Shown here: piece after piece, positions 9,572-13,360 of the stretch
Layout of the letters: every line of letters starts with the position of its first letter
Position numbering within the stretch: the stretch's first letter is position 1
Sequence record: LR877332
Direction: 5' to 3' (one strand)
Source: Shigella phage vB_SsoM_JK08
DNA: 64,000 nucleotides
Made by a program: the position numbers and the translations under genes
The notes under the pieces: generated by a model
The model's database searches: none
Told to the model about the DNA's origin: nothing
What the model saw: the letters and a program-made list of their open reading frames with translations, nothing else

Positions 9572-10042
9572 TTAATCATGTGTCCACACCCCATCGGTAT
9601 TTGACCAAAGTCGCTGATTATCTGATCCTCGCCACAGCTTTTTGGTCGGAAGATTTTTCTCATACTTCCCATCAATAATAACATCAACATATTTAAGCAT
9701 TTCTAGTTGTTTAATATCTTCAAACTTATATCCTGTCCACAACCAAATGCTTTTATTTGGATAAAGATTTTTTACTGTTTGAACAATGCAATGAATAACA
9801 TCTCGATTATCAGGATAGAGAGGGTCTCCTCCAGTTATAGTTAATCCTTCTATATAATCATTATTCAAACATTCAATTAATTGTTCTAGTGTTTCACCAG
9901 TGAATGGAATACCATTTCTAGCATTCCATGTTGATTTATTATAACACCCTTCGCATTTATGCAAACAACCTGTAACGAAAAGAACGACCCTGCAACCAGG
10001 GCCATTCACAAAATCGCAAGGATAAAATCTATCATAATTCAT
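9572..10042 (-). CDS. nrdG: anaerobic ribonucleotide reductase activating protein (radical SAM)
   Basis: 156-aa ORF; Cys cluster CRVVLFVTGCLHKCEGC; overlaps nrdD stop. Confidence 0.9.
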   Translation of the reverse strand: MNYDRFYPCDFVNGPGCRVVLFVTGCLHKCEGCYNKSTWNARNGIPFTGETLEQLIECLNNDYIEGLTITGGDPLYPDNRDVIHCIVQTVKNLYPNKSIWLWTGYKFEDIKQLEMLKYVDVIIDGKYEKNLPTKKLWRGSDNQRLWSNTDGVWTHD

Positions 10043-11856
10043 TGGTGTTTAACCCTATGCATGATTTCTTTATTTTTACCGAGATTAAATCCGCGTTCGT
10101 TCGGATTTCCCAAATAACCGCACGTTCTTCTTATTGTGTTCATCTTTTTAGGATCAGTTTCTCCACAAATAGAACAAACAAACCCGTTTTCAGTAGGAGT
10201 CATTTCATGGGTACTTCCACACGTAAAACATTTATCTACTGGCATGTTAACACCAAAATAATCTAAATGTTGTGCAGCATAATCCCAGACAGCCTCAAGA
10301 CCTTTTAGGTTATTTTTCATATCAGGAAGTTCAACATAAGAAATGTGACCACCTGTCGCAATGAAATGATATGGGGCTTCGCGAGAAATCTTTTCAAACG
10401 GAGTAATATTTTCTTCTACTGAAACATGGAAACTGTTAGTGTACCATCCTTTATCGGTAACATCTTTTACACTTCCATATTTTTCTGTATCAAGTTTACA
10501 GAAGCGATAACAAAGGTTTTCAGCAGGAGTCGAATACAAACTAAAAGCAAACCCAGTTCTTTCAGCCCACTGTTTAAGACGAGCATTCATTTTAGTTAAA
10601 ATTTCTTGTCCAATATCACGACCGACAAGAATATTCAATTCATGAATACCAATGTATCCTAAAGACACTGAACTTCTACCGTTTTTAAATAACTCAATTA
10701 TGTCGTCATCAGGCTTAAGACGAACCCCGAATGCACCTTCTTGGTAAAGAATAGGAGCAACAGTCGCTTTAACTCCTTTTAAGGAACTAATTCTACACAT
10801 CAAAGCTTCAAAACATAAATCCATTCGCTCATTGAACAATTCAGTAAATTTCTGTTCATTGAACTGTGTTCCAATATAAGAATCCAACGCAATACGAGGA
10901 AGATTCAGTGTTACAACACCAAGATTATTACGTCCATCAAGAATTTCATTACCGGTTGAATCTTTCCACGCGCTCAAGAAACTGCGGCAACCCATTGGAG
11001 AAACAGGAATAGATGAGCCGGTGATAGCTTTATTGTTCTTAGCTGAAATAATATCAGGATACATCCTTTTGCTTGCACACTCTAGAGCAAGCTGCTTAAT
11101 ATCATAGTTCGGATCGTCTTTATAAAGATTAACACCTTCTTCAACGAACATAACAAGCTTAGGGAAAATAGGAGTTATCCCATCACGACCGAGACCTTTA
11201 ATACGATTTTTCAGAATTGCTTTCTGAATCATTCGTTCAGTCCAGTCAGTTCCCGTACCAAATGTAATTGTTACAAAAGGAGTCTGTCCGTTTGAACTAA
11301 AGAGAGTATTTACTTCATATTCATAAGCTTGGAATGCATCGTATACATCTTTTTCTGTTTTAGATTGAGCATAATTTAACGCATCAGCGATTTGCCATTT
11401 TTCTGCATCCTCAATATGTTTTGCATAGGTGCGTTTAACATAAGGAGAAAGTACTTTATCTACATTAGCAAAAGTCGTTCCGCCATATTGATGGGAAGCA
11501 ACTTGCGCAGTAATTTGTGCCATAATTGCAGTAGCAACGCCAATTGATTTAGGAGTTTCAATCTGTGCATTACCTAGCTTAAATCCGTTTTCAAGCATTC
11601 CTTTTAAATCTACTAAACAACAATTAGTAAATGGAAGAGCAGGGGAATAATCAATATCATGGAAATGAATAATTCCGCTTTCATGCGCTTTCATAATAAA
11701 AGACGGGACCATATTTTTGGCAATGTGTTTAGACACAATACCAGCCATAAGGTCCCGTTGAGTTGGAAAAACACGAGAATCTTTATTAGCATTCTCGTTT
11801 AAAAGGTCTTTATTAGTTTTATGAATCAATCCTTCAATTTCTTTTTCAATTGTCAT
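10039..11856 (-). CDS. nrdD: anaerobic ribonucleoside-triphosphate reductase (glycyl radical enzyme), uninterrupted
   Basis: 605-aa ORF; C-terminal glycyl radical motif RRTCGYLG and Zn-ribbon Cys pairs; single continuous reading frame. Confidence 0.93.
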   Translation of the reverse strand: MTIEKEIEGLIHKTNKDLLNENANKDSRVFPTQRDLMAGIVSKHIAKNMVPSFIMKAHESGIIHFHDIDYSPALPFTNCCLVDLKGMLENGFKLGNAQIETPKSIGVATAIMAQITAQVASHQYGGTTFANVDKVLSPYVKRTYAKHIEDAEKWQIADALNYAQSKTEKDVYDAFQAYEYEVNTLFSSNGQTPFVTITFGTGTDWTERMIQKAILKNRIKGLGRDGITPIFPKLVMFVEEGVNLYKDDPNYDIKQLALECASKRMYPDIISAKNNKAITGSSIPVSPMGCRSFLSAWKDSTGNEILDGRNNLGVVTLNLPRIALDSYIGTQFNEQKFTELFNERMDLCFEALMCRISSLKGVKATVAPILYQEGAFGVRLKPDDDIIELFKNGRSSVSLGYIGIHELNILVGRDIGQEILTKMNARLKQWAERTGFAFSLYSTPAENLCYRFCKLDTEKYGSVKDVTDKGWYTNSFHVSVEENITPFEKISREAPYHFIATGGHISYVELPDMKNNLKGLEAVWDYAAQHLDYFGVNMPVDKCFTCGSTHEMTPTENGFVCSICGETDPKKMNTIRRTCGYLGNPNERGFNLGKNKEIMHRVKHQ

Positions 11857-12326
11857 TTTAAACTCTTTCTAAGCTGCTTCTTAAATGAAGCTATTAATTG
11901 TGTTTTAGTGTCAGATTCATTATATTCAAATCCTCTTTGAAGCATCTCGGCCATCATTTCCTCTTTTCCTAAACGAGAAAATTCCTTTGATTTATCTCCA
12001 ACAAAGTTAGGGTGAATATTATTTTGGGTGTAATCGGATTTTAAATAAGTAAGTAAATTTTCTAACCATTCAAGATAATCAACACCTTGTCCCTTTAAGC
12101 CAGAACGATTAAATTTATGCTTCATTTGACCTTCTGCGGCATTGCATAGATTACAAAGCAATCCACGTACCTTTCCTGCTTTTGGTCCATTTAATTCATG
12201 GTCATGATCAAGATGATTAGCTTGAACATCAGGATTTAGTTCTCGTTGGCAAATTAAGCATTTACCGTTTTGTGCATTATAAAATTTCTGTTTTTCTTCT
12301 TTGTATAATTTGCCAGTCAATAACAT
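11853..12326 (-). CDS. 49: endonuclease VII (Holliday junction resolvase)
   Basis: 157-aa ORF; N-terminal Zn-binding CxxC...CNLC; matches recalled T4 gp49. Confidence 0.85.
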   Translation of the reverse strand: MLLTGKLYKEEKQKFYNAQNGKCLICQRELNPDVQANHLDHDHELNGPKAGKVRGLLCNLCNAAEGQMKHKFNRSGLKGQGVDYLEWLENLLTYLKSDYTQNNIHPNFVGDKSKEFSRLGKEEMMAEMLQRGFEYNESDTKTQLIASFKKQLRKSLK

Positions 12327-12334
12327 AATAAAAC

Positions 12335-12362
12335 CCTTACCTTAAATAGATAAGGGTATTTA
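12335..12362 (-). terminator. hairpin followed by T-run
   Basis: cccttac...ataaggg inverted repeat with flanking T/A runs. Confidence 0.3.
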
Positions 12363-12368
12363 TTATTT

Positions 12369-12545
12369 TTAAGTATTGTAAAACATTCGATGCAATCGTT
12401 TATACTGTCGAATCATCTTTTTAGTAGGACGAGAATAGGTTCCTACGCAAGTGGTCATATGAGGGTCCGTAGAATGTCCTTTAATAAAAAGTTTCCAAAC
12501 CTTACCGCCATTTAACTTTTCAGTATAAACCAATTCGGTTTTCAT
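12369..12545 (-). CDS. small hypothetical protein (58 aa) sharing its C-terminal module with the neighbouring 167-aa ORF
   Basis: ATG (RC of 12543-12545) to TAA (RC of 12369-12371); C-terminus IRQYKRLHRMFYNT encoded by the 44-bp repeat. Confidence 0.4.
   Translation of the reverse strand: MKTELVYTEKLNGGKVWKLFIKGHSTDPHMTTCVGTYSRPTKKMIRQYKRLHRMFYNT
12371..12414. repeat. 44-bp direct repeat copy 1 (encodes the C-terminus and stop of the small ORF)
   Basis: about 90% identical to 12584-12627. Confidence 0.8.
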
Positions 12546-12557
12546 TAAAATGTCCTG

Positions 12558-12586
12558 TCAGAAAAAGAATTTTGAGTTTTTTCAAG
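12558..12586. repeat. flanking direct repeat DR1 (tcagaaaaagaattttgagttttttcaag)
   Basis: near-identical to 12634-12659 with one mismatch and a 3-nt indel. Confidence 0.75.
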
Positions 12587-13085
12587 TATTGTAAAACATT
12601 TGATGCAATCGCTTATATTGCCGAATCTTTTGGTCAGAAAAAGAAATTTGAGTTTCAAGCCATTCAATGTACTCTGCGGCAGCTTGCATCAGGTTACCTT
12701 CATAGCCATCGTTATTTTCTTGTGCAGCTAATTTAGCTAATGCGTATGAAATACGTTCACCTTGAAAATCGGCTTTAGGCTTCTGAACAACTTGATTAGT
12801 TCGCTCTACAACTTCTTCAATTTCGCCATTTTCGACTGATTCAGTATTCCACAAGCACCAATACGTAATTGGCTTATCGTAGATGTTAATAATCTTTCCG
12901 TCGGAAAGTTCAATTTCAATAATTCCAGTGTCAGGCTCTATATCATCTTCACATTCTTTTACAAGTTCACGAACTTTAAAGACAGTACCTGCACTAAGTT
13001 CCGGCCAGTAATTACATAGCCCTGTATCAACACGATTAATTCTAAACCACTTATCTACTGTAATCATGTCCCATCTCCATATCAA
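12582..13085 (-). CDS. hypothetical protein (167 aa)
   Basis: ORF; C-terminal 14 aa encoded by the repeat module. Confidence 0.55.
   Translation of the reverse strand: MIWRWDMITVDKWFRINRVDTGLCNYWPELSAGTVFKVRELVKECEDDIEPDTGIIEIELSDGKIINIYDKPITYWCLWNTESVENGEIEEVVERTNQVVQKPKADFQGERISYALAKLAAQENNDGYEGNLMQAAAEYIEWLETQISFSDQKIRQYKRLHQMFYNT
12584..12627. repeat. 44-bp direct repeat copy 2 (encodes the C-terminus and stop of the 167-aa ORF)
   Basis: about 90% identical to 12371-12414. Confidence 0.8.
12634..12659. repeat. flanking direct repeat DR2
   Basis: matches DR1. Confidence 0.75.
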
Positions 13086-13189
13086 TTAAGTCATTTATCG
13101 TTGGTTCATTATATACTGTTTCTTCATCAGTGTAAACCGGTTCTTCCGGCTCTGGCTCTACAGTTTCCCATCTAGCCGCCCACCAAGGT

Positions 13190-13360
13190 TTAACCCCGAA
13201 GCTTATTAAGTTCTTCATAATCAATCCAGGATTCTAATCCTGATGGCAAATCAGATTCAATTTCCCAAAGAAGCTCTTCAATTTTCTGAAGACGATCTAG
13301 TTCTTCGGCTGGAATAGTAACCATTGACGGAGCTCGTGATACATTAATATCGTAAATCAT
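13190..13360 (-). CDS. small hypothetical acidic protein (56 aa)
   Basis: ATG at 13360 to TAA at 13190-13192; fills a gap between flanking ORFs. Confidence 0.3.
   Translation of the reverse strand: MIYDINVSRAPSMVTIPAEELDRLQKIEELLWEIESDLPSGLESWIDYEELNKLRG

Follow-up and report, generated by a model that had tools for sequence, protein, structure and literature searches.

A probable two-step recombination scar between pin and gene 49 in a T-even phage

Introduction

The Lon inhibitor PinA of phage T4 (Pin; PF10465, UniProt P07068) is described, with its C-terminal tail in place, as a biochemically characterised and active protein (PMC8835725). The pin gene of Shigella phage vB_SsoM_JK08 (sequence record LR877332) likewise encodes 161 residues and shares its chimeric C-terminus with those of T4 and T6, and its product is essentially no different from T6 Pin. 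Throughout, the window is the whole 64,000-nucleotide stretch of this phage DNA that was analysed. We propose that two successive recombination steps in a T-even phage shaped the region around the end of pin, where pin meets a DUF7279 gene and gene 49, and we assign this reading a probability of about 70%.

Results

Organization of the locus

The window is a Tequatrovirus (T4-like) genome, and the 601 bases around the locus share 99.8% identity with Yersinia phage PYps5T and many Escherichia phages. On the minus strand, pin is followed by a 58-aa DUF7279 gene, here called orfX, and by gene 49 (Table 1). The T4 version of nrdD is annotated as two joined pieces (group I intron with I-TevIII); the reading frame is uninterrupted in the window, so this phage is without the nrdD intron. 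On the minus strand, 13108-13136 is a strong match to a sigma70-like promoter (TTTACA-17-TATAAT, 11/12). The site falls inside the 49.1 coding region, some 40-70 nt before the start of pin, and may serve as an early promoter of pin, orfX and gene 49.

Table 1. Features of the pin–gene 49 region in the window.
Feature	Position	Strand	Description
nrdD	10039-11856	minus	uninterrupted 605-aa ORF
gene 49 (endonuclease VII)	11853-12326	minus	downstream anchor of the locus
gene 49 control region	12333-12365	minus	late-promoter-like AATAAATA at 12357-12364 and 10-bp-stem hairpin at 12333-12357
orfX, 58-aa DUF7279 gene	12369-12545	minus	PF23945, phrog_3272
D2, original 3' end of orfX (IRQYKRLHRMFYNT, stop)	12369-12414	minus	
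A2, non-coding remnant of native pin 3' end (..TQNSFSDRTF, stop)	12546-12581	minus	36 nt
D1, last 14 codons and stop of DUF7279, now the pin C-terminus (IRQYKRLHQMFYNT, stop)	12582-12627	minus	
A1, native coding 3' end of pin (..LETQISFSD), still used	12628-12660	minus	T6 alignment
pin (PinA, putative Lon protease inhibitor), 161 aa, chimeric	12582-13067	minus	Inhibitor_I24

Both pairs of repeats on which the original prediction was built are present. The two copies of module D agree at 41 of 46 positions and each encodes IRQYKRLH[R/Q]MFYNT and a stop codon on the minus strand, and the two copies of repeat A (12557-12579 and 12633-12655) agree at 22 of 23. Pairs of this quality would be expected by chance about 4e-9 times in the whole window for D and about 6e-6 times within 1.4 kb for A. 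The direct repeats D1 and D2 stand exactly 213 bp from each other; of their five differences, four are silent in the common reading frame. The module had been assigned to a 58-aa and a 167-aa reading frame; the former stands, but the latter was read from a TTG at 13085, and pin actually begins with the ATG at 13067, which gives 161 aa as in T4 and T6. An assembly artefact is ruled out by the same D1/A2 junction in 113 independent phage records.

A1 is joined to D1 at GAC CAA AAG/ATT (here and below, a slash within a sequence marks a join), the D1/A2 junction lies within a run of A at 12577-12582, and the stop codon of A2 overlaps the ATG of orfX (TAATG). From its position within A2, 7 nt before this ATG, AGGA at 12553-12556 would be the orfX Shine-Dalgarno sequence.

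Excision of 12557-12632 (76 bp) in silico restores the anticipated alternative ending, a 148-aa Pin terminating in ...EWLETQISFSDRTF, which is exactly the pin ending of phages SP1, Sa45lw and HY01. These relatives lack the module; their pin ends in ...SFSDR(T/A)F and the 58-aa gene is directly next. The 44-46-bp module is thus the 3' end of the DUF7279 gene in two copies. The 23-27-bp repeats that appear to flank it had been read as part of a footprint of insertion or illegitimate recombination; they mark no insertion, but represent the pin 3' end once in its fused and once in its native form. A mobile 76-bp element, made up of the module and one repeat and inserted in pin, would explain why direct repeats bracket the module, as target-site duplications or recombination sites, and why removal restores an intact alternative pin end. 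However, both of its parts are local (the 3' ends of pin and of its neighbour), it has two copies only in the 64-kb window, at adjacent sites, and the locus has no transposase, integrase or homing endonuclease gene. The repeats, 23-27 nt and 96% identical, exceed the typical length of target-site duplications and are not identical, and T4 and T6 carry the module with one repeat only. Such an element is highly improbable.

The Pin tail matches the DUF7279 family

The window Pin matches Pfam PF10465 (Inhibitor_I24; MEROPS I24) over residues ~3-140 with 160.6 bits (cutoff 27, E 2.6e-47), and the match to phrog_2167 spans residues 1-145. Residues 146-160 match positions 44-58 of phrog_3272, the family of orfX (E 0.0097), and in tblastn the Pin tail is identical to orfX at 13 of 18 residues (E 1.5e-6). 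On the basis of these alignments, residues 1-145 of Pin are native and the last 14-16 residues come from the neighbouring DUF7279 gene. The end of the window tail is identical to that of T6 Pin, and the window pin DNA is ~96% identical to T4 pin; this identity, together with the literature on T4 PinA, suggests that the window Pin is a Lon protease inhibitor.

orfX itself matches PF23945 (DUF7279) with 62.7 bits (cutoff 24.5) over profile positions 1-53 of 53 and residues 7-56, the tail included, and matches phrog_3272 with E 3.4e-34. In the AlphaFold prediction, three beta-strands precede one helix, which spans residues 42-56; pLDDT is 81.6 for the best model and 52-56 for the remaining four. 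This is the only predicted helix of orfX, and the duplicated module therefore corresponds to the C-terminal helix of DUF7279. Whether the shared peptide is a localisation or degradation tag had been raised as a point to test; it belongs to this DUF7279 helix and is not a free-standing tag, and tblastn over the 64-kb window finds it at the two sites only, so that a tag shared elsewhere in the window is rejected. The prediction for the 161-aa Pin is poor (mean pLDDT 61, tail ~50), with the C-terminal helix merely extended. Relatives of Pin or orfX with solved structures are absent from the PDB.

DUF7279 homologues lie just upstream of gene 49 in Tequatro-, Mosig- and Gapriverviruses. Deposited genomes annotate orfX merely as 'hypothetical protein' and pin as 'protease inhibitor', and our search of the literature found no mention of DUF7279. 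In Mosigviruses, a second, divergent DUF7279 paralogue lies directly upstream of pin, which places pin between two family members (loci L004, 1371-1541; L010, 1671-1841; L013, 1329-1499). In two ENA metagenome contigs (L014/L015, 1501-2076), this upstream paralogue is fused at full length to pin by the loss of one base, giving 191 aa; isolate genomes keep the two as separate genes.

The module copies could also be similar because they form a conserved element of regulatory or RNA type, such as one for gene 49 expression, rather than through a coding duplication. D2 does lie directly upstream of the late-promoter-like box and hairpin of gene 49, but D1 is followed by neither promoter nor hairpin, and 11800-13300 contains no above-threshold Rfam match (best E 0.21 and 0.88). 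The predominance of silent differences between D1 and D2, and the position of the peptide within a Pfam domain that is conserved at the protein level across genera, also speak against this explanation, to which we give an almost negligible probability.

The C-terminus of the 148-aa Pins is ...SFSDRAF. Pins with only ~45% identity (QLEFSSKSF, QLAFSDRGF) and the Pin of Gaprivervirus VR20 (FSDEVF) keep this native ending, ...F(S/N)(D/S/A)(R/K)xF or, more generally, ...F-x-x-x-x-F, which is therefore ancestral. In VR20 (L008, 1063-1690; L022), pin has shrunk to 57 codons from its C-terminal side, with FSDEVF still at the end; downstream come an unrelated ORF of 89 aa and, after it, a DUF7279 gene of 61 aa. 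The functional core of Pin may lie in its conserved, helical C-terminal part.

Four alleles among related phages

The locus is matched by about 700 phage records, which split into discrete coverage classes; about 20 loci were read base by base, and the class sizes given here are those of the BLAST coverage classes. Allele 1 has a 148-aa pin ending in ...ETQ(I/K/N)SFSDR(A/T)F, the TAATG overlap and then orfX (SP1, Sa45lw, HY01 and KIT03); it accounts for ~73 records, that is, the 186 records with at least 80% coverage minus the 113 of allele 4. Allele 2 has the same 148-aa pin with orfX cleanly deleted (ECP2301; ~70 records in a spread sample). In allele 3, found in T4 and T6 and in ~250 records, a 161-aa pin ends in the last 15-16 orfX codons, to which it is joined in frame, and orfX itself is absent. 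Allele 4, that of the window, has the order A1-D1-A2-orfX(D2), namely a T6-type fused pin, a 36-nt remnant of native pin and orfX, with one and the same D1/A2 junction in its 113 records.

The segments of the window allele divide between two of these alleles. A1 is identical to T6 at 33 of 33 positions and D1 to the T6 pin tail at 46 of 46. A2 matches SP1 at all 34 aligned positions, where it is the true end of the 148-aa pin, and the orfX body (129/131) and D2 (44/44 aligned) match SP1 as well. Deletion of 76 bp in silico renders the window collinear with SP1 (344/345 aligned), and deletion of 213 bp renders it collinear with T6 (207/208). These matches and deletions indicate that the window allele combines a fused pin of the T6 type with an SP1-type cassette of pin 3' end plus orfX. 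As judged from these alignments, homology can be followed piece by piece, and both parental alleles are extant. D1 also agrees with the HY01 orfX 3' end at 44 of 46 positions, which suggests that the four silent differences between D1 and D2 are mostly standing variation among orfX alleles and not the result of selection on the tail within Pin.

The T4 junction reads GAC CGA/ATG ATT (SDR/MI...) and joins R146 of Pin to M44 of orfX, which corresponds to a 137-nt deletion from an HY01-like allele. The other fusion junctions differ by point changes only: DRM in T4, DQM in P0011, G9062 and EC.W5-4, and DQK in T6 and the window. All fused tails carry HQMF and all orfX copies HRxF; together with the series of point changes, this argues for a single fusion event in Tequatrovirus. 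DQM and DQK are each found with and without orfX, so the alleles are not cleanly nested, and an attempt to read the order of events from the nesting of junction variants failed for this reason. In the window-type genomes that were read, the remnant keeps AGG or AAGG 7-9 nt before the ATG, and the former R-A/T-F codons vary (AGGACA, AAGGCA, AGGGCA).

Proposed history of the locus

From these alleles we infer an order of events, a mechanism for the junctions and a rationale based on the orfX ribosome-binding site. The starting point would be an SP1/Sa45lw/HY01-type arrangement, in which a 148-aa pin overlaps the start of the 58-aa DUF7279 gene (TAATG). In the first step, an illegitimate deletion of 137 nt would have removed the last three codons of pin together with codons 1-43 of the DUF7279 gene and joined the two frames. 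The product would be the 161-aa Pin of T4 and T6, with the DUF7279 C-terminal helix as its last 16 residues, and T4 would retain the primary junction, which shows ~1 nt of microhomology. The original prediction of a C-terminus swap by recombination is thus supported insofar as the 3' end of the neighbouring gene was used to replace the C-terminus of pin; the postulated insertion of a 44-bp module gives way to an in-frame deletion-fusion that is already found in T4 and T6.

In the second step, a genome with the fused pin would have regained the DUF7279 gene from an SP1-type phage by unequal crossover. The left join would be illegitimate and lie in the A-run just past the stop codon of the fused pin, and the right join would be homologous, in or beyond the gene 49 leader. 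Alternatively, a circle of 210-213 bp may have integrated through module D, with the same product. Because the ribosome-binding site and ATG of orfX in allele 1 lie inside the last codons of pin, a functional cassette would have to bring ~36 nt of pin with it; the final 36 nt of native pin would have arrived from the donor as part of the cassette, and the product would be A1-D1-A2-orfX(D2). At the left join, T6 reads ...CTTGAAAA/TAAT, SP1 reads ...GGCTTG/AAACTC and the window reads ...CTTGAAAAAACTC. The D1/A2 junction has six A's (five in phage F1) versus the three expected from an in-register CTTGAAA join, and the join therefore appears to have been only loosely guided by microhomology.

The same D/A junction could have arisen if duplication came first. 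An SP1-type phage would then have undergone tandem duplication of the segment from the pin 3' end to orfX, an internal deletion in the first copy would have produced the window allele, and homologous deletion between D1 and D2 (213 bp) would have led to T4 and T6. The spacing of D1 and D2 as direct repeats suits this order, since removal of 213 bp gives the T6 arrangement; a tandem duplication is on record at the locus (UPWr_E4), and DQM and DQK variants in both allele classes are what would be expected in freely recombining phages. However, this order requires three events to reach T4 and T6, two of them illegitimate, versus one deletion in the favoured history, and no A-C-D-A-C-D intermediate occurs among the loci read. 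Moreover, the D module of T6 equals D1 at all five positions that distinguish D1 from D2, stop codon included, which would confine the crossover to the last few bases, and the T4-specific CGA/ATG junction is seen only without orfX. We consider a duplication intermediate rather unlikely and favour an unequal crossover between T6-type and SP1-type phages.

A rearrangement hotspot bounded by the gene 49 control region

In the classical T4 model, late transcripts begin inside a hairpin and so unmask the translation of gene 49. A promoter and regulatory role at T4 gene 49 was reportedly described by Barth et al. in 1988. The window hairpin includes the gene 49 Shine-Dalgarno sequence and is directly preceded by AATAAATA, which is a perfect TATAAATA in Mosigviruses; in some records the hairpin is labelled 'terminator'. 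By their sequence and arrangement, the hairpin and the late-promoter-like box are consistent with the classical model. The locus is a hotspot of deletion and insertion whose right boundary is this box and leader hairpin: 12333-12365 is kept in every deletion allele examined and thus sets the right-hand limit of tolerated rearrangements.

orfX is cleanly deleted in Mosigvirus PhAPEC2 as well, and the clean deletions of PhAPEC2 and ECP2301 show microhomologies of the TTTTA/TTA type. A Mosigvirus-like Logan contig, SRR20302901 (L013, 1501-1926), contains an independent in-frame fusion, ...YIEYLERR/FHRDFYNVY and stop, with a 6-nt microhomology (ACGTTT) at both breakpoints. By comparison with L010 and L004, this fusion joins pin to the last nine codons of the downstream DUF7279 gene; no isolate genome has it, and L013 is the only metagenome contig that does.

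Escherichia phage UPWr_E4 (L012; PP418987.1, 7466-9266) has a ~695-bp tandem duplication that comprises the 3' part of D1, A2, orfX and most of gene 49. The first of its two copies of gene 49 breaks off after ...EYNES and continues in the other frame of D1/A2 into RIKCFTILEKTQNSFSDRTF and a stop codon. The duplication could be real or an assembly artefact.

Discussion

By sequence comparison, the T4 PinA of Lon biochemistry is a chimera whose last 16 residues come from a neighbouring gene. We know of no description of this origin of its C-terminus, and what is new here is the recognition that residues ~146-161 fall outside the Pin family, which calls for caution among annotators and structure modellers. 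The more widely conserved native Pin is the 148-aa form. The exchange itself is ordinary mosaicism of the known T4-like kind, in a region known to be plastic, and the window arrangement is common in deposited genomes. It is nevertheless a clearly readable recombination scar, and it provides a base-by-base case of T-even phages losing, fusing and regaining small accessory genes while parental and recombinant alleles all still circulate.

The amphipathic basic C-terminal helix of DUF7279 might be a module with a function of its own, retained by selection after the loss of its gene. This reading draws on the capture of the helix onto Pin at least twice independently, in the T4/T6 lineage of Tequatrovirus and in the Mosigvirus-like contig, and on the joining of a whole upstream DUF7279 paralogue to Pin in the two metagenome contigs; we regard it as improbable. 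If it held, Pin and DUF7279 would share a host target (Lon or a partner), and the tail would tune inhibition by T4 PinA. A 'Rosetta-stone' link between Pin and DUF7279 is weakened by more distant T4-like loci, where different ORFs, or no ORF at all, separate pin from gene 49. The full-length N-terminal DUF7279-pin fusion is weakened as evidence for such a link, since it is one base off the isolates and comes from low-coverage metagenome contigs.

Among described systems, the shuffling of PeSL cassettes in the hyperplastic regions of T4-type phages (Arbiol et al. 2010, PMC2839356; Comeau et al. 2014, PMC4122927) has the same outcome, namely the presence or absence of a small non-essential ORF among close T4-like phages, and there, too, a small circle can be looped out between direct repeats. 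PeSLs are sigma70-promoter-plus-stem-loop cassettes, whereas the window repeats are coding fragments. No sigma70-like promoter occurs at A or D (12546-12660), which rules out a cassette of the PeSL type, and the only hairpin is that of the gene 49 leader (12333-12357). Microhomology-mediated deletion is a known source of gene fusions, and the L013 fusion, with its 6-nt ACGTTT, is a textbook case. For the Tequatrovirus events the case is weak: the fusion junction has ~1 nt of microhomology, and D1/A2 lies in an A-run beside a 7-nt CTTGAAA repeat but out of register with it. For this fusion, the parental, undeleted alleles are extant.
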